The notes under the pieces: model-generated
The model's input: the letters and a program-made list of their open reading frames with translations, nothing else
Told to the model about the DNA's origin: nothing
The model's database searches: none
In this document: positions 497-42,230 of the stretch, piece after piece
How the letters are laid out: each line of letters begins with the position of its first letter
Numbering within the stretch: the first letter of the stretch is position 1
From: Myxococcota bacterium
GTDB taxonomy: Bacteria; Myxococcota_A; UBA9160; UBA4427
Direction: 5' to 3'
Assembly: GCA_963169575.1 (NCBI GenBank)
Contig: CAUJGH010000231.1
Location: forward strand, 1-42,230
Length of the DNA stretch: 42,230 nucleotides
Program-made: the position numbers and the translations under genes

Positions 497-2848
497 TCAT
501 GGATTCGTCGCTTCGAGACGCGCGAGCGCCGCGTGATGACGAGCCGCCGCGGCCGCGTTCCCCGCGTCCGAATGAAAGCTGACGAGCGCCTCGCGCACGG
601 CGCGATCGCCCGGATGCGCCGCCGCCGTCGCCTCGAGGCGCTCGATCGCCTCCCGGACCTTGCCCGCCGAGTGCAGCGCGACCGCATGGACGTAGGCGAA
701 CCGGATCGAATCCGGATCGAGGTCCACCGCCCGCGCGAGATCCGCCTCCGCCTGGGACATCCGCCCGGCGCGGACGCGCGCGAGGCCCCGCGCGTGGTGC
801 AACGCAGCGCTCTCGGGCATCCGCGCTAGCGCGGCATCGAGCGTTCGAATCGCTTCCGCCTCGAGGCCGAGCGCGCGCTCGAGATCCGCGAGATTGATGT
901 GCGCCGGCTCGTAGCGGGGCTCGATCGAGATCGCGACAGCGAGCTCGCGGCGCGCGCCCTCGGCGTCGCCCCGCTCGGCGAGGAATACGCCGAGCTGGGT
1001 CCGGGCCTCCGCACGATCCGCGTCCCGGCGCAGCGATGCCTCGTACTCGGCCGCCTCCTGCTCGTAGACCGCCCGCACGGCCGGTGACAGCTCCCGCGCG
1101 AAGGCGGTCAGCATGCGCACGGCCTCGAAGCGCAGCGCCCGGAGCGGATCCCTCAGAGCCTCCTCCGCAACCGAGATCCGAGCCTCGCCGGGCGCGCTCG
1201 CGAGTCCCTCGAGCGCACCGAGTCGCACGAGCGCGTCCGGGTCGCCCACGGCCCGAACGAGTGCTTCCGCCGAGGATCGGCCCAGCGATCCATCGAGACG
1301 CGCGAGCGCCGCCGCGCGCACGATCGAGGGCTGCGACGAATCGGCCGCGACCGCACGCAGCGCCGGACCGGCCTCCGGCGCGCCGATCTCGCTCGCGTGG
1401 AAGGCCGCGGCGTGGCGCTCGAATCCCTGCGCAGGCCTGCCGCGCCACCTGCGCAGGGTCTCGTCGGCCCAGCGGACCGGTCGCTCCGCATGACAGCTCT
1501 GGCAGGCATTCGGGACCCCGAGCGAGACCGTCTGATCCGGCCGCGGGACGCGCAGGCTGTGGTCGTGACGCGGGTCGATCATCATGTAGGTCTTCGTCGG
1601 CATGTGGCATGCGACGCATTGGCTCCCGCTCGACGCAGGCGCGTGGCGATGGTGGTCGGGGGTCGCGTACTTCGACGGCGCGTGACAGCTCGCGCAGAGT
1701 GCGTTGCCCTCGGCGCGCGGCTTGCCCGAATGTGGATCGTGGCAATCGCTGCAGGTGACGCCCTTCGCGTGCATGCGGCTCTGGAGGAAGGAGCCCCAGC
1801 TGAACACCTCGTCGTCCTGCTGGCCGTCGGCGAAGTAGAGACCGGGGTCGAGGAGCGACGGGCGATGGTGGTCGAGGAAGGGCTCGCCGGCGACATGGCT
1901 CTCGGTGATGTTGCTGCGGCGGGCATGACAGGGCGCGCAGACGTCGAGCTCGCGACTGGTCGTCCGGGGCGCCGAGCGCAGCGGGTTCCCGCTCGTCGGA
2001 TCGATCGTCCAGCGAATCCCCCGCCGCTCGTCGAGGTGCGCCACGAGCCCCATTTCGGATCCATCGCGCGAGGCGCGCTGCGGCTGCGGAGAGCCACTCG
2101 CCGCGTCGCCCGTGCGGCTCGTTGCCCAGCGGATGTGCTCGGCGCCGGGACCGTGGCAGCTCTCGCATCCGACGCCCAGCTCTTCCCAGCGCGATTCGAA
2201 CTGGGCGCGCTGTGCGTCGAAGCGCTTGCGGAAGCCCGTGACGTGGCAGTCGGCGCAGACGTGGTTCCAGTTCTGCGAAGGTCGCGAGAAATGCAGCGGG
2301 TCCGTCGCATCGAGGGTGGCCTCGGGGTAGAGGTTGAACCAGCGCTGGCCGCCTGCCGACTCCGGTCGGGTATCCCAGGCCCAGGGCAGGACCTGCACCC
2401 GGCCGTCGACCGCTTCGAGCAGGTACTGCTGGAGCGGGTCGACGCCGAAGGTGCCCGATATCCGAAGCACGCCGTCGTCCGCCTTCGCATCGGGATCGAC
2501 CCGACCGCGCGCGGCCCGGTCGCGGGATACCCTGTAGCCGCCGCCCTCGCGCCCGAAGGTGACGGCGCCGCCCCCCTCGCGGAGCTCTTCGCCGCCGAAG
2601 GGTGCCTTCACGCTCCCGGTCGTCGCGAAGGCCATCGCCGCCCGGTGCTGCGAGCGCTCCCAGCTCGCCGCCGCGTCCGCATGACACGCGACGCAGGCCG
2701 CACTGCCCACGAAGCTCGGCTTCGAGGCAGACGTGCTCCCGGACGCAGCTTCGCGCGCGCTGTCGTCGGAGCCGCAGCCGAGCGGGGCGCAGGCGGCGAG
2801 CCATGCGGCGCCCATGCGCAGGCCGGTTGCGATCGAGCGATCCGTCAT
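497..2848 (-). CDS. Multiheme (8 x CXXCH) c-type cytochrome with C-terminal TPR repeats, secreted
   Basis: 783-aa ORF with an N-terminal signal-like segment. Eight CXXCH motifs are present: CVACH, CADCH, CESCH, CAPCH, CSDCH, CASCH, CVACH, CQSCH. The C-terminal ~250 aa is Ala/Leu/Arg-rich and TPR-like (..AEAIRTLDAALARMPESAALHHARGLA..). Confidence 0.85.
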   Translation of the reverse strand: MTDRSIATGLRMGAAWLAACAPLGCGSDDSAREAASGSTSASKPSFVGSAACVACHADAAASWERSQHRAAMAFATTGSVKAPFGGEELREGGGAVTFGREGGGYRVSRDRAARGRVDPDAKADDGVLRISGTFGVDPLQQYLLEAVDGRVQVLPWAWDTRPESAGGQRWFNLYPEATLDATDPLHFSRPSQNWNHVCADCHVTGFRKRFDAQRAQFESRWEELGVGCESCHGPGAEHIRWATSRTGDAASGSPQPQRASRDGSEMGLVAHLDERRGIRWTIDPTSGNPLRSAPRTTSRELDVCAPCHARRSNITESHVAGEPFLDHHRPSLLDPGLYFADGQQDDEVFSWGSFLQSRMHAKGVTCSDCHDPHSGKPRAEGNALCASCHAPSKYATPDHHRHAPASSGSQCVACHMPTKTYMMIDPRHDHSLRVPRPDQTVSLGVPNACQSCHAERPVRWADETLRRWRGRPAQGFERHAAAFHASEIGAPEAGPALRAVAADSSQPSIVRAAALARLDGSLGRSSAEALVRAVGDPDALVRLGALEGLASAPGEARISVAEEALRDPLRALRFEAVRMLTAFARELSPAVRAVYEQEAAEYEASLRRDADRAEARTQLGVFLAERGDAEGARRELAVAISIEPRYEPAHINLADLERALGLEAEAIRTLDAALARMPESAALHHARGLARVRAGRMSQAEADLARAVDLDPDSIRFAYVHAVALHSAGKVREAIERLEATAAAHPGDRAVREALVSFHSDAGNAAAAARHHAALARLEATNP

Positions 2849-4066: not shown

Positions 4067-5755
4067 CTACTTGCTGATCTTCTGGCCTTCACCCAGGGTC
4101 GCCATCACGGCGTCCATGTTGAAGCTGGCCGCCTTCTGGCGCTGCGGGAACTCCTCGAAGCTCTCGAGGAACTTCCCCACGAACCCCTGGGCGGGAACGA
4201 GAAGGAAGATGTGGTCGAGTAGCCAGTCGTAGTAGGTGTTCGACGTGATGTCCGCGCGCTCGTACGGGTCGGTGCGGAGATTGAAGATCTTGGGAACGCG
4301 CAGGTTGACGAAGGGCTCGGCCCAGATCTGCAGGGTGCCCTGCTGTCGCTGCTCCATGAAGACGAACTTCCAGTTGTCGTAGCGGAGTCCGGTCAGCTGT
4401 TGGTCGTCGTTGATGTACAGGAACGACTCGCGCGGGCTCTTCTCCACCTCGCCCGTCAGGTACGGAACGAGGTTGTCTCCGTCGAGGTGGACCTTGAACT
4501 TCGAGCCGCCGACCTTTGCGCCCTTTTGGAGCTCGTCCTTGACCCCGTCGTTTCCCGCCATGGCCAGGAAGGTCGGCAGCCAGTCGTGGTGCGCGACCAT
4601 CTCGTTCGAGATCTGGCCCGGCTTGATCCTGCCCGGCCAGCGAACCATCGCCGGGACCCGATAGGCGCCTTCCCAGTTCGAGTTCTTCTCGTTGCGGAAG
4701 GGCGTCATCGCCGCGTCGGGCCAGCTGTTCATGTGCGGGCCGTTGTCGGTGCTGTACATGACGAAGGTGTCGTCCGCGATCCCGAGCTCGTCGATCGCCG
4801 CGAGGATCTCGCCGACGTTCTTGTCGTGGTCGATCATGGTGTCGTGGTACGGGCTCTGCCAGCGGCCGGACTGACCGATGCTCTCGGGCTTCGTGTGGGT
4901 GCGGAAATGCATGTGCGAGAAGTTGATCCACACGAACGCCGGGACGCCGGCTGCGTTCTGGCGCTTGATGAAATCGATCGCGCGCGCCGCGACGTCGTCG
5001 TCGATCGTGACCATCCGCGCCTTGGTCAGAGGGCCGGTATCCGTGCAGGCCTGCTTGCCGACCGGGCCGAAGCGCGGGTCGTTCGTCTTGTCGACGCTCG
5101 CCGTCGCCTTGCAGTCCATCACGCCGCGGGGACCGAACCGGGCCTTGAACGCCGGATCCTTCGGATAGTCGGGCAGCTCCGGCTCTTCCTCGGCGTTCAG
5201 GTGGTAGAGGTTGCCGTAGAACTCGTCGAAGCCGTGGACGGTCGGAAGGAACTCGTTCCGGTCGCCGAGGTGGTTCTTGCCGAACTGGCCGGTGGCATAG
5301 CCCTGGGCCTTCAGGAGCTCGGCGATCGTCGGGTCTTCCTTCTGGAGTCCGATCGGCGCCCCCGGCAGGCCGACCTTCGTGAGCCCCGTTCGCAGTCCGG
5401 ATTGCCCCGTCAGGAACGACGCGCGGCCGGCGGTGCAGCTCTGCTCGGCGTAGTAGTCGGTGAACATCATGCCTTCGCGGGCGACCCGGTCGATGTTCGG
5501 CGTCTTGTAGCCCATCACGCCGTGGGAGTAGGCGCTGACGTTCGACTGGCCGACGTCGTCGCCCCAGATGATCACGATGTTGGGCTTCCGCGACGCGTCG
5601 TCCACCTGCGCCGAGACCGGCGGAGCCGCAGACGCGAGCGCGACACCCGCTGCGAGACCCAGGGCCGCCCGGAATCGTATCGGTCGGGTCGGGCTGACGG
5701 GCTTCGGCCCGCCGAGAGCCGAGCTCGCCATGCCGATGATCGTGGGATCCATCAT
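4067..5755 (-). CDS. Arylsulfatase (formylglycine-type sulfatase family)
   Basis: Active-site segment YYAEQSCTAGRASFLTGQ (a C-x-A-x-R variant of the sulfatase signature), with sulfatase-like blocks throughout. Start set at MMDPTI.. (ATG 5753-5755), preceded by GGAGAG. A signal-like ALGLAAGVALASAAPPVSA follows. Confidence 0.9.
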   Translation of the reverse strand: MMDPTIIGMASSALGGPKPVSPTRPIRFRAALGLAAGVALASAAPPVSAQVDDASRKPNIVIIWGDDVGQSNVSAYSHGVMGYKTPNIDRVAREGMMFTDYYAEQSCTAGRASFLTGQSGLRTGLTKVGLPGAPIGLQKEDPTIAELLKAQGYATGQFGKNHLGDRNEFLPTVHGFDEFYGNLYHLNAEEEPELPDYPKDPAFKARFGPRGVMDCKATASVDKTNDPRFGPVGKQACTDTGPLTKARMVTIDDDVAARAIDFIKRQNAAGVPAFVWINFSHMHFRTHTKPESIGQSGRWQSPYHDTMIDHDKNVGEILAAIDELGIADDTFVMYSTDNGPHMNSWPDAAMTPFRNEKNSNWEGAYRVPAMVRWPGRIKPGQISNEMVAHHDWLPTFLAMAGNDGVKDELQKGAKVGGSKFKVHLDGDNLVPYLTGEVEKSPRESFLYINDDQQLTGLRYDNWKFVFMEQRQQGTLQIWAEPFVNLRVPKIFNLRTDPYERADITSNTYYDWLLDHIFLLVPAQGFVGKFLESFEEFPQRQKAASFNMDAVMATLGEGQKISK

Positions 5756-35509: not shown

Positions 35510-35804
35510 CGGGGGTCCTTTCTTCGGGGCAGCCGGTCGGGGCAGTCGGTCTCTTGGACGGTCGGGGCGAACGGTCGGGCGATGGGACGGAGCGGATCTC
35601 GCTTCCGCCCGATCGGCCGGGGTCGGGCCCGGGGCCGGTCGGGCGGAACTCGGACGATGCCGCGTTCCGGGGGCGATGACACGCCTCGGCTCGCACCGCG
35701 CGCCCATCCGACCGGAATTCTTCGGGAATTCAGCGCCGGGGGCGCGTCCGGCCCGCGCACGGGGGGCGGCGGGGGCGGCTCGTTTCGGTACTCTCCCGCG
35801 CTCC

Positions 35805-35892
35805 GGAGAGGTGGCCGAGAGGCCGAAGGCGCGCCCCTGCTAAGGGCGTATAGGGAAACCTATCGAGGGTTCGAATCCCTCCCTCTCCGCCA
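35805..35892 (+). tRNA. tRNA-Ser (anticodon GCU), long variable arm, CCA encoded
   Basis: Folded by hand. Acceptor GGAGAGG/CCTCTCC. Anticodon arm CGCCC-CTGCTAA-GGGCG. Variable arm TAGG-GAAA-CCTA. T arm GAGGG-TTCGAAT-CCCTC. Then G-CCA. Confidence 0.9.
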
Positions 35893-36924
35893 TCTAGGCT
35901 GCGGCTCCGGAGACTTTGCGCTCGGGGTGCGATCCATCCAGAAAATACGCGCGATTCCGCGGGGTTTTGGGCGAGGAACTCAGCGTATCCCAAGCGGAGA
36001 CGCGTTCGGGGCGCGCTCCGAGGCGCCGCGAAGCGGGTCGTTCTCCAATGAAGGGCCGGGCACTTCGGATTGGCGAGTTAGATGCCTATTCGAGGGGGTG
36101 CTCGCGCCTTGGTCTCGCTACCCCGGGCGCGAACGTCCCGCGAATCGGTAGACGTTGCCAGCCCTCCTTGTGGACTGGGGATGTCATCGAGCCAAGCGAG
36201 CTTCTCCAGTGTCCACGCTGACCGGGGGGGGCATTGCGGCAGGCGAACTCCGTTCAAGCAACCGTGCGACCTGATCATCGCGAGCGCCGCGATATCCGCT
36301 ATTACGGGACCGGCAGGGAGATTTTAGGACTGAAACTGAACTTGCGGAGACCCCAGGAGGAGTTGAGCGTCTGGGTGCGACGCGCGTGGTAGAACGTCGA
36401 TCAGATCCTGATGGGCTACGGTACTTTTTACTAATTAGTTGTACGGCCCGCCGACCTCCGCGTGTTAATCGGACAGAAGGCGCAACGCTGTTGGCGCCTC
36501 GACTCGATCGAGCTCCGAAGGCGAAGACGCAAACCAGCCGGCCGAATTTCGATCCGGTTCGATCGGCCTGCGAGATTGGCATTGCTGCGACGACGGCCGA
36601 ATCTCCTCGCAGCTGACGCGTCGGCCGAAGAGACGGCTCTTTCTCCAGCCGCGTCAGGACGTCCCCGCCAACAGCTGCGGGAGGTCTTGGCGCTCAGAGA
36701 CCCGATTCTCCGATCGGATGAGCTTGACCGAACGCCTCGCATCTCCGGATTTGCGTCGCCGTGCTGATGCGGGCCGTACAAATCAATGCAGACGGACGAT
36801 TCGCGGTCGAGGCCGTCGCATGCTGCGCCGACCTCGACGCTGCGGGCTTCGCGCTCAGCTTAGGCCGGCTCGTTCGGCTTTGCAGCGATCGCTGTACTCT
36901 TGCTAAACCTAGCGCGAAGCGCCG

Positions 36925-38418
36925 ATGATCGGCGATTCGTTATGCAACACCTGCGTGAGAAATTGCATGAGCGATCCCACAAAGAAGCTAAAGGCAAAGT
37001 TCGCGCCCAACCATAGATACGCGAATTTTGGTCCCGCTATCAGTTCGATACGGATATGCGGGTTCCGCGGGATCGCTGACATGCGTATCGAGTTTGAGTT
37101 CCCCGTAACGGCATTCTCCGGGCTGAATGGCGCCGGGAAAAGCACCGTTGGACAGCTCGCAATATGCGCCTATCGAAAACCTTCTACCGGCGCCCACTAC
37201 AGACGTTACTACGTCAAGGATTTCTTTCCCGTTTCAGTAGCGGATCCAAGCCCGTTTGAGCCCAACGCTCGGGTGGAATATTCCTACGAGACTAATCAAC
37301 CTAATGCGCAGCAAACCGTAACAGTTGCGCGTGCCCTGAAGGAGTGGTCCGGCTATAAGCGACAGCCTGAGGGTTACGCATTCTACGTGGGATTCACGCT
37401 CTATATCCCCAAAGTCGAGCGCAGAGACCTGAGCATTTATCGCGGATCCTCGATTGACCTTCGGGCTACTCGGGCGATTCCAACGGAGGTACGCGCCAAA
37501 GTTGGATCGATTCTGAACCAACCTTATGATGATTTAGTATTCCAGGGGATCGGACATAAGAATCGCGAAGTTGAACTCGGCCTTGCCACCCGATACGGGT
37601 CCAAGTATTCAGAAAACAACATGGGGTTCGGTGAGGGCCGCGTCCTCTATATGGTGGACCTGATGGAGACGGTCCCCGAGCAAAGCTTATTTGTATTGGA
37701 AGAGCCTGAGACCTCGCTCCATGAGGACGCCCAGTTTCAACTAACTCGATATCTTCTCGACGTGTGCGACAGACGGCACCATCAGATGATTCTTTCGACC
37801 CATTCGAGCGTGATTCTGGAGGCGCTTCCGCCCGAGGCGCGAAAATTGCTATTGAGAGACTCATCCGGTGTGATCGAGTTTCCGCGAATCTCGGCCACGC
37901 GAGCACGATCGATCCTTTCGAAGGGCCAAAAGCGAGGACTAACCGTTTGCGTCGAAGATGCGTTCGCGAAACTGGTTCTGACGGAAATCCTCCGGAGAGC
38001 AGATCCCGCGCTTCTAAAGGCCGTCGCAATTGAGCCAATTGGAGATAAGGCCGCAGTGCTGAACGGCATCCGACTACTCGACCACCTCTCAATAAATGCC
38101 ATAGGTGTTCGTGACGGCGATTCCGGTGCGGATGCAGCGAAGAAGATTTTCAAGTTGCCTGGCACCAAGTCCCCTGAACTCGAAGTATTTGAAACGGAGA
38201 AAGTGCAGAAGCATCTCGTCGAGACATATGGCGTAAGCGTCGAAGACTTCTTATCAATTCATCCCGATTTTGACCCGCACACTCTCCCAGCAGCGCTAGC
38301 AAAAGAGATTAATCTCCTACAGGACGCGCTAAGTACGGATGCTGTCCGAGTGTATGTAGGTAATTTGGATCCGTCCGAGTACTCTGATTTAGTTGCCGCC
38401 ATAAAAGGCGCTGCATAA
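36925..38418 (+). CDS. OLD-family-like ABC-type ATPase fused to a TOPRIM/DUF4435-like nuclease domain
   Basis: Walker A GLNGAGKST (37120-37146). Signature-like SENNMGFGEGRV. Walker B LFVLEEPETSLH (from 37687). H-loop LSTHS. C-terminal VCVEDAF (E344, 37954-37956) and GVRDGDSG (D397/D399, 38113-38121) fit a TOPRIM E...DxD. An alternative start lies at ATG 36967 (MSDPTKK). Confidence 0.75.
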   Translation: MIGDSLCNTCVRNCMSDPTKKLKAKFAPNHRYANFGPAISSIRICGFRGIADMRIEFEFPVTAFSGLNGAGKSTVGQLAICAYRKPSTGAHYRRYYVKDFFPVSVADPSPFEPNARVEYSYETNQPNAQQTVTVARALKEWSGYKRQPEGYAFYVGFTLYIPKVERRDLSIYRGSSIDLRATRAIPTEVRAKVGSILNQPYDDLVFQGIGHKNREVELGLATRYGSKYSENNMGFGEGRVLYMVDLMETVPEQSLFVLEEPETSLHEDAQFQLTRYLLDVCDRRHHQMILSTHSSVILEALPPEARKLLLRDSSGVIEFPRISATRARSILSKGQKRGLTVCVEDAFAKLVLTEILRRADPALLKAVAIEPIGDKAAVLNGIRLLDHLSINAIGVRDGDSGADAAKKIFKLPGTKSPELEVFETEKVQKHLVETYGVSVEDFLSIHPDFDPHTLPAALAKEINLLQDALSTDAVRVYVGNLDPSEYSDLVAAIKGAA

Positions 38419-38648
38419 CCAGCGCCTACTCTCTGCGGGCTACTTCGTTTCAGGGGAGAGTTTGCAATAAGAGCAAATGAACCAGGCGAGTCCAAAGCTG
38501 AGGACGTCTCAGCTACGCCGTCTAGGCCGGTCTTTGACCGGAAGGCGGCTTGTACGGCTTCGTTCCGGCCGGTGTATTCTCGACAAAACTTTTGTCGTCG
38601 ACTCGCAGCTCATCTGCGGTCCGTTAGCCGGAGTGGATCGAGGACTTC

Positions 38649-39251
38649 GTGGGCGTGCTACTAGGCTTTGATCCAGGTGGTGCAGGCACCTTCGGCTGGT
38701 GCGTTGCGCGCGACTCCGTGTGGTTGCCTCTTGAGGTTCTCGCCTCCGGAGTGACGAGCCATGCGAAATCGGCGGTCGCGGCAGCTATCTCGGTTGTGCC
38801 GTCCGGCCAGGAAGTGCTTGCGGCAGGTATCGACGCCCCGTTGGTTTGGGCGAGGAGTGGACCCCGCAATTGCGACCTCACTGTTCGGCAGGCGATTCGC
38901 CAAGCAGGTGCGAAGCATTCTGCTGGAACCGTTCAGGACGTAAACTCGCTCCGCGGTGCCTGTCTGGTGCAGGGCATTCTCGCAGGCCTCGAGCTTCGTG
39001 AGGCATTCCCTTCGCTTCCCCTTACGGAGGCTCATCCGAAGGCGCTTCGTTGGCTGTGTTCGGAGTCCGCGAAGATCGTTGCCTCAACCGACCACGAACG
39101 AGACGCAATCCTAGGCGCGTTTGCTGCCTGGGCCCTCGTTCATAGTCCTTCCGGCTGGTGTGATCTCTACTTGAATGAAGTTCCCTACTTTACGCCTCTG
39201 CCGCGGCCGCTGGCATACCTCATGCCGCTGACCGGTCGGGGACATGGTTAA
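38649..39251 (+). CDS. RNase-H-fold protein (RuvC/DUF429-like predicted nuclease)
   Basis: GTG start 5 nt after GAGGA; an in-frame TAG upstream forbids a longer N-terminus. Motifs: LLGFDPGGAGTFGW (D8), AAGIDAPLVW..GPRNCDLTVRQAIRQAG (D62), LTEAHPKAL (E127), HERDAILGAFAAW (D152). Order and spacing match the DUF429/RuvC pattern as I recall it. Confidence 0.65.
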   Translation: MGVLLGFDPGGAGTFGWCVARDSVWLPLEVLASGVTSHAKSAVAAAISVVPSGQEVLAAGIDAPLVWARSGPRNCDLTVRQAIRQAGAKHSAGTVQDVNSLRGACLVQGILAGLELREAFPSLPLTEAHPKALRWLCSESAKIVASTDHERDAILGAFAAWALVHSPSGWCDLYLNEVPYFTPLPRPLAYLMPLTGRGHG

Positions 39252-39278
39252 CAGAAATTCGGGGACATGGCTGAGAAA

Positions 39279-39294
39279 TTGCCGTGCCCGGCAA
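39279..39294. terminator. Short hairpin between convergent genes
   Basis: TTGCCG-TGCC-CGGCAA, 28 nt after the stop of 38649-39251. It is weak, with only a 6-bp stem. Confidence 0.25.
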
Positions 39295-39311
39295 ACGATC
39301 ATTGACGCAGA

Positions 39312-40958
39312 TCAATCGTAACCCAAGACTTCCATCTGCTCGGACCACGCGAGCGGCAAGTCGATCCGCGTCAACAGCGCTGCGGTGGTGAGCTCAATCG
39401 GCTGAGTACCCGCGAAGACTCTCGAGACGATCTCGGGCGCTAGAAACGCGAGCGGGATCAGCGTCCCGATGTACGGTGCACTGACTCCTTCCGCCTCTGC
39501 AATTGCCTCTAGGGATTGACCGCTCGCGAGGGCTTCAAACCATCTCCGCGCCCGAATCAGCGCCTTGATGAGCGCCGGGTCCACACGGGCATCGGGCGAT
39601 CCCGCCTCCCCGTCGTCGAGAACGAGTCGCGTCTCGACCCCACGTCGCCGGATCCGTGCCGGGAGGGTGTGTCGTATGATGATTGCTTCTTCGTCGAGGA
39701 AGCTCGACAGGTCGACGTTCATCGTGAGGCTCTCTGCGCCGAGATCCACCCGCGCCACCAATCCAAGAGGCCTCCCAGTCCAGTCGCGAACCCGGTCGAG
39801 CAAAACTGAGATCCGCGCCTCGTGGACCCCCGACTCCCGGGCTAGTCGAGCCAGCTCGGCCGGATTCGCGAAGAGGGCGACGACCCGCTTGGCCACGAAC
39901 TGCTCGATCTCCCGAGCAGGCAGTCGCCAACGGGAGGATCGATTGTTCGATGCGCACGGGGAGCCTCCGGTGATCGATTCTCGAGAGACGTAGTACCGAT
40001 AGCGGCGACCGCTCTTGACCGCGTGGCTCGGGGTCAGGCCGATGCCCGCTTCATCGAAGAGAATTCCGCGGAGCGGGTTGCTGTGGGCATGGTTCCGAGC
40101 GGGGCGGCTCGGCGTTTGCTCGGCGAGCTGCTTCTGGACCGCTTCCCAGGTCTCCAGGTCGACGATGGCGGCATGCTGACCTTCGAAGGATTGGCCTTTG
40201 TGAGCGATCCGGCCGGCGTAGATCGGGTTGTTGAGGAGCTTATAGAGGTGGCCTCGGCTGAACGGGATGCCTCCTCCCTTCCACCGACTGTCTCCGGGCC
40301 GCACCTTGCTTCGAAGGCCCATTCGATCGGCCTCTTCCTTGACCCGCCGGACAGAGCCCAGCTCAAGGTAGAGGCGGAAGAGGGCTTGGACCGTCTTGGC
40401 CTCGGACTCGACGATCGTGAGGGTTCGCCCGTTGGGCTCGTAACCGAGCGGGACGTTCCCGCCCATCCAAAGGCCCTTCCGCTTCGAGGCGGCAATCTTG
40501 TCCCGAATCCGCTCGCCCGTGACCTCTCGCTCGAACTGGGCGAAGGAGAGAAGCATGTTCAAGGTGAGCCGCCCCATCGAGGTCGTCGTATTGAACTGCT
40601 GGGTCACGGACACGAAGGAGACTTCGTGCTCGTCGAGAATCTCGACGATCTTGGCGAAGTCTGCGAGCGACCGAGTGAGCCGGTCGACCTTGTAGACGAC
40701 GACCGTATCGATCTTCCCGGCCTCGATGTCGGTCAGGAGTTGACGGAGGGCAGGGCGATCGAGGGTCCCCCCCGAATATCCGCCGTCGTCGTATCGCGAT
40801 CGGATGGGCTGCCATCCCTCGCCCACCTGGCTCCGGATATAGGCTTCGCAGGCCTCCCGCTGCGCATCGAGTGAGTTGAAATCCTGTTCGAGCCCCTCCT
40901 CGGAAGACTTGCGGGTGTAGGTCGCGCAGCGGCGGCGCTGGGGGTGGACCGTGCTCAT
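39312..40958 (-). CDS. Large serine recombinase (resolvase/invertase N-domain + recombinase domain + C-terminal extension)
   Basis: Start MSTVHPQRRRCATYTRKSSEEGLEQDFNSLDAQREACEAYI. Contains YDDGGYSGGTLDRPALRQLL, VVVYKVDRLTRSL, GERIRDKIAASKRKGLWMGGNVPLGY and PIYAGRI. ATGA overlap with the upstream gene. Confidence 0.9.
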   Translation of the reverse strand: MSTVHPQRRRCATYTRKSSEEGLEQDFNSLDAQREACEAYIRSQVGEGWQPIRSRYDDGGYSGGTLDRPALRQLLTDIEAGKIDTVVVYKVDRLTRSLADFAKIVEILDEHEVSFVSVTQQFNTTTSMGRLTLNMLLSFAQFEREVTGERIRDKIAASKRKGLWMGGNVPLGYEPNGRTLTIVESEAKTVQALFRLYLELGSVRRVKEEADRMGLRSKVRPGDSRWKGGGIPFSRGHLYKLLNNPIYAGRIAHKGQSFEGQHAAIVDLETWEAVQKQLAEQTPSRPARNHAHSNPLRGILFDEAGIGLTPSHAVKSGRRYRYYVSRESITGGSPCASNNRSSRWRLPAREIEQFVAKRVVALFANPAELARLARESGVHEARISVLLDRVRDWTGRPLGLVARVDLGAESLTMNVDLSSFLDEEAIIIRHTLPARIRRRGVETRLVLDDGEAGSPDARVDPALIKALIRARRWFEALASGQSLEAIAEAEGVSAPYIGTLIPLAFLAPEIVSRVFAGTQPIELTTAALLTRIDLPLAWSEQMEVLGYD

Positions 40959-41437
40959 GCGGACGCACCCTTGACCAGTCCGAAGAAGCGTGGTCCCGAC
41001 CAACGGGTCCCGGTGATCTCGCGTGCCACGGCCGAGAGGGAAGGCCAGGTCTGGTCCCGATACCGGACACCCCGCTCGAGGACGATCACCTCGTGGACTT
41101 TGCCGTTCCACTCGCGCAGGAGACGGGTGCCCGGCTTGATCTTGGGGACGGGCGAGGCGACGGGTCGGCCGGCGGCGAGATCTCGTTCGGCGCGGGCGAG
41201 TCGGCGGAAGGTCAGGGCATCTAGACCGCCAAAGGCTTGCTCCTGCATCCGGTAAGCGAGGGCTCGGGTCAGGATGCGGCGGCTGATCTGGGTGGGGCAG
41301 GGCGTCTCGTAGAGCTCGACCCAGCGCTTCTGCAGCTCGGTGCGAGGGAGTTTGGGGAGGGATTTCAGGTCCGATTCGAGCCGATCCTCTGCGCGCCTGC
41401 GGGATTTGGTCATTCGGGTCCTCGGCGATCGCTGCAT
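40955..41437 (-). CDS. DUF2924-like protein, a typical partner of large serine recombinases
   Basis: ..LPKLPRTELQKRWVELYETPCPTQISRRILTRALAYRMQEQAFGGL...PGTRLLREWNGKVHEVIVLERGVRYRDQTWPSLSAVAREITGTRWSGPRFFGL. The start could be the internal MTKS (41413). Confidence 0.75.
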   Translation of the reverse strand: MQRSPRTRMTKSRRRAEDRLESDLKSLPKLPRTELQKRWVELYETPCPTQISRRILTRALAYRMQEQAFGGLDALTFRRLARAERDLAAGRPVASPVPKIKPGTRLLREWNGKVHEVIVLERGVRYRDQTWPSLSAVAREITGTRWSGPRFFGLVKGASA

Positions 41438-42050: not shown

Positions 42051-42230
42051 CAGTTACCCCGGTTGGGCACCGTCTGTCGGATCGAGTCTAAGCGGCGACT
42101 TCGCCGATCGACTTCTCCGCCCAGATCTTCATGCCATCCTCGAACGTCGCCATCTCCGTCCTTCCGCAGCACATCTTGCCCTGGTGCGTCCGCTCCTCGT
42201 TATAGCGAACGATCCAGGCATCGAGATCCT
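42049..42230 (-). mobile_element. End of an IS element (rve/DDE transposase, IS481/IS3-like), which continues beyond the window
   Basis: Terminal sequence TGACAGTTACCCCGGTTGGGCACC, 39 nt from the transposase stop. Confidence 0.6.
42088..42230 (-). CDS. DDE (rve) transposase, C-terminal 47 aa (partial)
   Basis: Hand translation gives DLDAWIVRYNEERTHQGKMCCGRTEMATFEDGMKIWAEKSIGEVAA*. The YNEERTHQG block is the post-catalytic-E region of rve integrase-core transposases. Confidence 0.7.
   Translation of the reverse strand, partial: DLDAWIVRYNEERTHQGKMCCGRTEMATFEDGMKIWAEKSIGEVAA

Follow-up and report, generated by a model that had tools for sequence, protein, structure and literature searches.

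Does the close neighbourhood of two nuclease-type genes reflect a joint function, or can two unrelated genes come to lie side by side and look like a system? This question is raised by positions 36925-39251 of contig CAUJGH010000231.1, a 42,230-nt stretch of DNA from a Myxococcota bacterium (assembly GCA_963169575.1) that we analysed over its whole length and call the window. Two open reading frames (ORFs) follow each other there on the forward strand, and a preliminary description of the locus had presented them as an undescribed two-gene conflict system, in which an OLD-like fusion of an ABC ATPase with a TOPRIM domain (ORF1) is paired with a DUF429/RuvC-like protein of the RNase H fold (ORF2). 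Here, by comparing gene neighbourhoods, protein families, predicted structures and models of recombination sites, we arrive at a different reading: ORF1 and ORF2 are probably two unrelated, decayed integron-type single-gene cassettes that stand side by side in a CALIN-like arrangement, without an integrase. The term CALIN denotes clustered attC sites that have no integron integrase with them, and by definition at least two such sites must stand close together.

Gene neighbourhoods of ORF1 and ORF2 relatives

Do the relatives of the two genes keep each other's company? We collected 80 genome loci with ORF1 homologs (36-70% identity, with 6 kb on either side) and 80 metagenome loci with ORF2 homologs (40-64% identity), and searched each set with the other protein by tblastn. 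An ORF2 homolog was found in none of the 80 ORF1 loci, and an ORF1 homolog in none of the 80 ORF2 loci. The test is informative because at least 900 nt of downstream flank are available in 80 ORF1 loci and at least 600 nt of upstream flank in 65 ORF2 loci. When the nearest relatives were added and 177 loci were recounted at E 1e-3 (about 89 with an ORF1 homolog and about 88 with an ORF2 homolog), both genes occurred together only in L169, which is the same DNA in another assembly.

The genes that do flank the relatives are of many kinds. Downstream of ORF1 relatives of 68-69% identity lie a 257-residue protein, or a 151-residue and a 136-residue protein, or a DSPc phosphatase, and upstream of ORF2 relatives of 67-70% identity lie unrelated small genes. 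No conserved neighbour was found among the closer ORF1 homologs, and the genes directly beside the nearest relatives differ in every case. The ORF2 homologs have no recurrent neighbour either; at most 5 of 76 loci fall into one neighbour cluster. The conserved adjacency that a two-gene conflict system would display is thus absent from all loci other than the copy in L169, and the proposal of such a system loses its ground further in that ORF1 by itself corresponds to a named single-gene system, HEC-04.

ORF1 is a predicted HEC-04/IbfA protein

The longest frame of ORF1 runs from 36925 to 38418 (+) and encodes 497 residues, as had been described. The true start is, however, most likely the ATG at 36967, because nearly all homologs among the matches listed are 481-486 residues long and the database protein identical to ORF1 is annotated with 483 residues. 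We use this frame (36967..38418, +, 483 residues) below; residue numbers given in the preliminary description are 14 too high, so that its K72, the Walker A lysine, becomes K58. All of the motifs reported earlier (GLNGAGKST, LFVLEEPE, STHS, VCVEDAF and GVRDGD) are found in the translation. GLNGAGKST, LFVLEEPE and STHS show no variation in an alignment of 21 homologs, and K58, E245/E246, H279, E330, D383 and D385 are invariant.

Among PADLOC profiles, ORF1 matches HEC-04 (Hma-embedded candidate 04) with an E-value of 3.2e-48, over residues 32-424 of the 497-residue frame and profile positions 20-403 of 494; the match spans 79% of ORF1 and leaves about 70 C-terminal residues outside. Weaker matches are AriA (5e-21), the retron profile ATPase-Toprim_I-B (2e-13) and GajA (1e-10), and the AriA, GajA and PtuA scores (E 1e-8 to 5e-21) lie far below that of HEC-04. 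Pfam detects only the generic AAA_15 and AAA_21 domains. HEC-04 has been shown by experiment to protect as a single gene, and its defence is lost in the mutants K62A and E319A/D375A/D377A (bioRxiv 10.1101/2024.01.29.577857). The Walker A lysine and the E...DxD residues of ORF1 are spaced like these essential residues, E330, D383 and D385 standing at distances comparable to those of E319, D375 and D377 in HEC-04. HEC-04 in turn has been reported to be homologous to IbfA, an abortive-infection-like factor of IncI plasmids (PMC12111858) that is carried by R64 and pUA1135. In both, as in ORF1, one chain of about 480-520 residues joins an N-terminal ABC ATPase to a C-terminal TOPRIM domain. From its sequence, then, ORF1 is assigned to the known single-gene anti-phage family HEC-04/IbfA, and the earlier premise that the pair bore no name does not hold for its first gene.

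The predicted structure agrees with an OLD-type architecture. The AlphaFold (AF2) model of ORF1, made from 21 homologs, has a pLDDT score of 82.9, and its top Foldseek match in the PDB is the OLD nuclease of Thermus scotoductus (6p74, E 2e-14), followed by GajA and then by the retron Eco8 and PtuA ATPases; the heads of SMC and Rad50 can be aligned with the model as well. PDB sequences searched by profile gave the same order of matches. The invariant TOPRIM residues E330, D383 and D385, together with the full-length structural matches to OLD 6p74 and GajA, uphold the description of ORF1 as an OLD-like ABC-ATPase-TOPRIM fusion. OLD nucleases (P2 Old, 6P74) and Gabija GajA share with ORF1 the combination of ABC ATPase and TOPRIM and are its best full-length structural matches, but their sequence similarity to ORF1 is limited to the ATPase signature region, and the TM-scores with the ORF1 model are low (0.3-0.4), so that inserts and domain arrangement differ. 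Partners of such ATPases were also looked for: neither a UvrD-like GajB partner nor a class 2 OLD helicase neighbour is present in the window, and no GajB helicase, AriB, PtuB HNH protein, RloB or reverse transcriptase flanks ORF1.

How far does the family extend from ORF1? Proteins of about 520 residues on conjugative plasmids of E. coli and Salmonella, which are probably IbfA, are about 25% identical to ORF1, and a DNA search of the whole region against plasmids returned short ATPase segments alone. Distant ORF1 homologs (L061-L079, 36-41% identity) adjoin recurrent proteins of 1367 residues (14 loci) and 1132 residues (11 loci), which we read as the putative Hma helicase and methylase of the published HEC-04 context. 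Homologs at 49-70% identity are, unlike this group, often borne on cassettes. ORF1 and several of its relatives differ from HEC-04 and IbfA in that they are probably integron-type cassettes rather than Hma-embedded or plasmid-borne genes.

ORF2 represents a divergent DUF429 subfamily

ORF2 (38649..39251, +) starts with GTG, encodes 200 residues and lies in a cassette that begins at about 38626. The motifs GFDPGG, GIDAPL, RNCDLTVR, TEAHP and ERDAILGAF are all in the translation, and D8, D62, E127, H129 and D152 are invariant in the homolog alignment. We detected 1073 relatives, mostly of 195-220 residues. Pfam DUF429 (PF04250) scores 20.9 bits against ORF2 (residues 42-88), under the cut-off of 23 bits, yet 19 of 25 aligned relatives match it at E <= 0.01 (best 3e-7), so that ORF2 belongs to a divergent subfamily of DUF429. 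The AF2 model of ORF2 (pLDDT 89.8) has T. thermophilus RuvC as its top Foldseek match, a weak one (E 2e-3, probability 0.92), and RNase H1 and Ydc2 as the next PDB matches, likewise with weak E-values. The earlier assignment to a DUF429/RuvC-like RNase H fold is borne out by the matches of the relatives to PF04250 and by RuvC as the best structural match.

Within the RNase H-like superfamily, DUF429 has been assigned to clade D, which is RuvC-like, and its genomic context has been judged conserved and not mobile (Majorek et al, 2014). ORF2 resembles the family in that its members are mostly single-domain proteins of about 200 residues with conserved acidic residues at the expected catalytic positions of the RNase H fold; it differs in that the ORF2 subfamily sits in mobile cassettes, whereas DUF429 was described as probably not mobile. 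We suggest that ORF2 is probably a metal-dependent RuvC-type nuclease that acts alone.

Searches with ORF2 itself returned no match in PADLOC or NCBIfam. The PADLOC single-gene candidate PDC-S44 is matched by 2 of 25 family members at E < 0.05 (best 5.9e-5) over about 80 residues, a weak and partial link for which we found no useful literature and which we set aside. Some homologs of 273 residues (P0016, P0017, P0030 and P0040) carry a C-terminal toxin-binding domain of the Xre/MbcA/ParS antitoxin type (PF09722). At the one locus of such a fused homolog that was examined (L170, 4001-4822), no RES-type or other toxin gene stands beside it; the neighbours there are a DUF6988 gene and a TnsA-like gene.

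Relatives of both genes in attC arrays

The closest relative of ORF2, P0002 (70% identity), sits in an array of 12 small genes on the same strand (L161). Between these genes lie 13 repeats of 152-166 nt, which start with GCCTAAC and end with GTTAGGC. They take the fold of a canonical attC hairpin: the consensus has 44 pairs, compensatory changes are seen in 13 of these, and the L stems have bulges. From the attC sites of this one array we built a covariance model, R1. Relatives of ORF1 are found next to sites of the same kind: P0123, 68% identical to ORF1, is directly followed by an attC of the L161 family (R1 52.8 bits, E 1.6e-9), and at least seven R1 attC matches surround the ORF1 homolog of Paraperlucidibaca baekdonensis. 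R1 attC sites also follow ORF2 homologs in L101-L104. R1 is too narrowly fitted to a single attC family to serve for all loci: with default filters it found nothing at E <= 0.01 in 83 ORF1 loci, and once the filters were switched off it detected sites in L173 and L065 among selected loci.

A simpler rule points in the same direction. Genes with GTTANNN upstream and, at the stop codon, the exact reverse complement of that box were found in 6 of the 80 ORF1 loci and at 6 distinct ORF2 places, compared with about 0.2 expected by chance (a rough estimate), and GTTAGGC stands 20-30 nt ahead of the start codon in L001, L005, L034, L050 and L065. Defence genes are reportedly abundant in integron cassettes (Science 2025 papers).

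The array of the 68% ORF1 relative in L173 also holds, at 4978-5564, a HigB-like toxin and HTH_3 antitoxin pair and a PRiA4_ORF3 gene. Content of this sort is typical of chromosomal integron arrays.

attC-like sequences border both genes

In the window, the best R1 match on both strands of the 42 kb is the site at 36773..36945 (+), with 22.6 bits and an E-value of 0.0018 over the full model length. The site ends in its R' box, GTTATGC (36939-36945), with the ORF1 ATG 21 nt further on. This box and the R'' box GCATAAC at 38413-38419 are exact reverse complements and flank ORF1 in a cassette that begins at about 36940. The latter box overlaps the ORF1 stop codon and opens an attC-like region between the genes (38413..38631, +) that closes with the R' box GTTAGCC (38625-38631); the 3' half of this region is well kept and its 5' half degenerate. 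An nhmmer search of the window with a profile of the L161 attC sites gave, as its top two matches, 38533-38628 (E 0.015) and 36778-36943 (E 0.035), immediately upstream of ORF2 and ORF1, respectively. A third site at 35985..36153 (+), the second-best R1 match in the window, is borderline (15.5 bits, E 0.056) and may be the first of the array. Two to three attC-like sites thus lie within 2.7 kb, one of which is significant by its own E-value.

The borders of ORF2 are also cassette-like. GTTAGCC at 38625 is complementary, with one mismatch, to GGTTAAC at 39246-39252, and each of the boxes around the two genes is one base off the strict consensus (R'' RYYYAAC, R' GTTRRRY). When the DNA around ORF2 is aligned with the P0002 cassette of L161, homology begins inside the 3' end of the attC site (CGCAGCT.A...GCG.TCCGTTAGCCGG), the 3' end of the site between ORF1 and ORF2 being nearly identical to the end of the attC that precedes P0002. 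The R'' box contains the stop codon, TAA, in both cassettes (GGTTAAC in ORF2, GGCTAAC in the P0002 cassette). The attC of the ORF2 cassette ends after this box, its remainder is missing, and the gene of a large serine recombinase begins where the rest of the site would be expected, 60 nt on.

The spacer between the genes had been described as a 231-bp sequence with a CCGGAA...TTCCGG hairpin and, possibly, a promoter for each gene. It measures 230 nt, and CCGGAA (38538) and TTCCGG (38563) are indeed present; they lie in the variable centre of the attC-like site. No sigma-70-like promoter is predicted in 35800-39400, both spacers included. From its boxes and position we take the 230-nt spacer to be the predicted degenerate attC site of cassette 1 and not a regulatory hairpin.

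Two further searches yielded no usable sites. A mini-site at 38398-38439 was not significant, and a home-made energy-based attC finder, which combines R''/R' boxes with a constrained stem energy, recovered all L161 sites yet did not discriminate between the gene strand and the opposite one, and was discarded.

Two repeats are of possible interest in this part of the window. A perfect 13-nt inverted repeat, TTGTACGGCCCGC (36439-36451) and GCGGGCCGTACAA (36769-36781), has 317 nt between its arms, where no Pfam-detectable ORF is found, and its right arm extends into the 5' end of the attC-like site 36773-36945; the repeat may point to a cassette without an ORF, whose first bases would be the complement of its own R''. 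There is also a direct repeat of 18 nt, ACCTGCGTGAGAAATTGC (36949-36966) and ACATGGCTGAGAAATTGC (39265-39282), identical at 15 of 18 positions, one copy standing directly before the ORF1 ATG and the other 14 nt past the ORF2 stop codon. This repeat may have been left over from the start of another ORF1-type cassette, or may be due to chance.

Genomic surroundings of the locus

To the left, the low-GC stretch is bounded by a tRNA-Ser gene (anticodon GCU; ARAGORN) at 35805..35892 (+). A second copy of its 3' end, which would mark the end of an island, was not found in the window. To the right, the large serine recombinase at 39312..40958 (-) matches Pfam Resolvase (7.8e-40) and Recombinase (2.7e-15). 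Its longest frame is 39312..41111 (-) with a GTG at 41111, and the start is most likely the ATG at 40958. This ATG overlaps the stop codon of a DUF2924 gene (40955..41437, -; Pfam PF11149, 5.8e-44) as ATGA (40955-40958, -), which suggests that the DUF2924 gene and the recombinase gene are translationally coupled.

The GC content is 52.6% in ORF1 and 61.5% in ORF2, a difference of 9 points, and 69% in the host part. The dip in GC content noted in the preliminary description is therefore real but less extreme than the values given there (about 48% and 60%, set against about 70-75%). The recombinase and tRNA neighbourhood that it noted is likewise present; its further claim that a serine-recombinase islet carries the two genes as cargo has been neither demonstrated nor disproved.

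A complete integron, with intI, attI and the cassette promoter (Pc) upstream, was not found: upstream lie the tRNA-Ser gene and then host genes of the enoyl-CoA-hydratase type. None of the six reading frames of the window contains a tyrosine-recombinase motif, the ORFs at 35900-36900, between the tRNA gene and ORF1, have no Pfam match and no recognisable intI remnant, and ten of the larger host ORFs scanned (about 310-780 residues) are metabolic, transport or regulatory genes.

Two other features of the contig may be recorded. Its right end (42086-42228, -), 1 kb beyond the serine-recombinase element, encodes the C-terminus DLDAWIVRYNEERTHQGKMCCGRTEMATFEDGMKIWAEKSIGEVAA, followed by a stop codon, which we presume to resemble the end of a DDE transposase of the IS481/IS3 type; an insertion sequence may explain the break of the assembly at this point. 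In the host part, the gene at 497-2848 (-) encodes a 783-residue multihaem cytochrome with paired CXXCH and cytochrome c7/c554 motifs, fused to TPR repeats; it has no connection with ORF1 and ORF2.

Discussion

What, then, has brought ORF1 and ORF2 together? The cassette signatures point to an integron origin of both genes rather than to an origin as cargo of a serine-recombinase islet. As in integron cassettes and CALINs, each unit holds one ORF and all units have the same orientation, with an R' box some 20 nt ahead of each start codon and an R'' box at each stop codon. True arrays which hold the closest relatives of the two genes share their attC family with the window, and defence genes in the cassettes of chromosomal integrons are an established theme. 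The window departs from such arrays in that its sites are decayed, one of them below significance, that intI, attI and Pc are missing, and that the last attC is cut short beside the serine recombinase gene. Because no integron integrase is present in the window, the best label for the region is a CALIN-like relic between the tRNA-Ser gene and the serine-recombinase element.

Several observations weigh against this reading of ORF1 and ORF2 as two decayed cassettes. The attC-like sites of the window are degenerate, and the two nhmmer matches are individually marginal (see above). The site between ORF1 and ORF2 aligns with R1 at 38464-38628, over the full model, at 6 bits; it has two possible 5' ends, 38413 (GCATAAC) or about 38464 (the degenerate GCAATAAG), and its predicted single-strand fold leaves the R'' and R' ends unpaired. 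The energy-based finder returned 129 and 134 matches on the two strands, and an integron integrase or attI was not found in the window. As to function, the activity of ORF1 is deduced from a relative, at about 25% identity to the likely relative on enterobacterial plasmids, IbfA. Finally, the comparative data leave room for a rare, lineage-specific partnership, the sole other copy of the arrangement being the same DNA (L169).

That partnership is the substance of the original proposal of a new two-gene conflict system, in which ORF1 would be an ATPase-TOPRIM sensor/nuclease and the RuvC-like nuclease ORF2 its partner or a second effector. In its favour, ORF1 and ORF2 follow each other in the same orientation, the folds of both are of the nuclease type and their catalytic residues are intact, many ABC-ATPase defence proteins have partners, and the same arrangement is seen in the second assembly, though this holds the same DNA. 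Against it stand the complete lack of co-occurrence in the ORF1 and ORF2 loci, the other neighbours found beside the closest relatives of each gene, the function of HEC-04 as a single gene, the recombination-site-like sequence between the two genes and their difference in GC content. We regard such a system as very improbable, and consider it just as remote that the ORF2-type protein functionally modifies the neighbouring HEC-04 protein. More serious, though still unlikely, is the idea that the genes are independent cargo of a serine-recombinase island at tRNA-Ser, with attC-like matches that are due to chance or are leftovers without any role for an integron. Low-GC DNA does begin right after the tRNA-Ser gene, the large serine recombinase with its coupled DUF2924 gene lies 60 nt past ORF2, IntI is absent from the window and its attC-like sites are weak. 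The positions of the matches, however, are too specific for chance: the two that rank highest in 84 kb of searched strand stop some 20 nt short of ORF1 and ORF2, the R' and R'' boxes around ORF1 are exact complements, and the ORF2 cassette boundary is shared with a true array (L161). Nor does a tRNA-derived direct repeat mark the end of an island inside the window, and an island could in any case carry a CALIN inside it, so that this explanation is compatible with the cassette reading. The serine-recombinase element may have cut the array, or may carry it.

The remaining alternative concerns ORF2, which might be a self-contained single-gene defence or anti-mobile-element nuclease, so that the locus would consist of two independent defence cassettes. 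This would fit the recurrence of the ORF2-type protein as a single-gene integron cassette, the reported richness of such cassettes in defence genes, the invariance of D8, D62, E127 and D152 in a RuvC-like fold, the PDC-S44 matches of two family members and the fusion of some members to an antitoxin-type domain. ORF2 itself, however, matches neither PADLOC nor NCBIfam; other homologs are found in housekeeping contexts, for example after the ccm operon in 24 contigs, and the DUF429 context was judged conserved rather than mobile (Majorek et al, 2014). We think it doubtful that the two genes form such a pair of defence cassettes, and to a similar degree doubtful that the ORF2-type protein is an undescribed defence or anti-plasmid nuclease which integrons have repeatedly captured.

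If ORF1 and ORF2 are indeed two decayed cassettes, how might the locus have formed, and what might the genes do? We infer that both cassettes were once inserted by IntI, and that the attC of ORF2 was later truncated by the recombinase element. The two genes would be adjacent because cassettes get shuffled, and not because of a joint function. In cassette 1, ORF1 would by homology be a TOPRIM nuclease that depends on ATP, is self-contained and stops phages from multiplying, and it would need the Walker A lysine K58 and the TOPRIM metal site formed by E330, D383 and D385. Phage-protection experiments have been reported for an E. coli HEC-04 representative and for IbfA, and by analogy with these we infer that ORF1 acts in anti-phage defence. 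Cassette 2 would contribute the DUF429-type RuvC-like protein ORF2, whose relatives occur elsewhere alone and in many contexts. Without Pc, the expression of both genes would have to rest on read-through or on unrecognised internal promoters.

In conclusion, the value of this locus is mainly corrective, as a plausible pair of ATPase and nuclease resolves into what are probably two unrelated cassettes; adjacency inside cassette arrays is not to be taken as evidence of an operon. The analysis also draws attention to a DUF429-like subfamily that is widespread, more than 1000 relatives being detectable, and that recurs as a cassette gene, and if ORF2 were to be a defence nuclease, the locus would represent a two-cassette defence stockpile. 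Genes of the HEC-04/IbfA type recur as cassettes in several Proteobacteria, which adds modestly to the view that integrons store defence functions.

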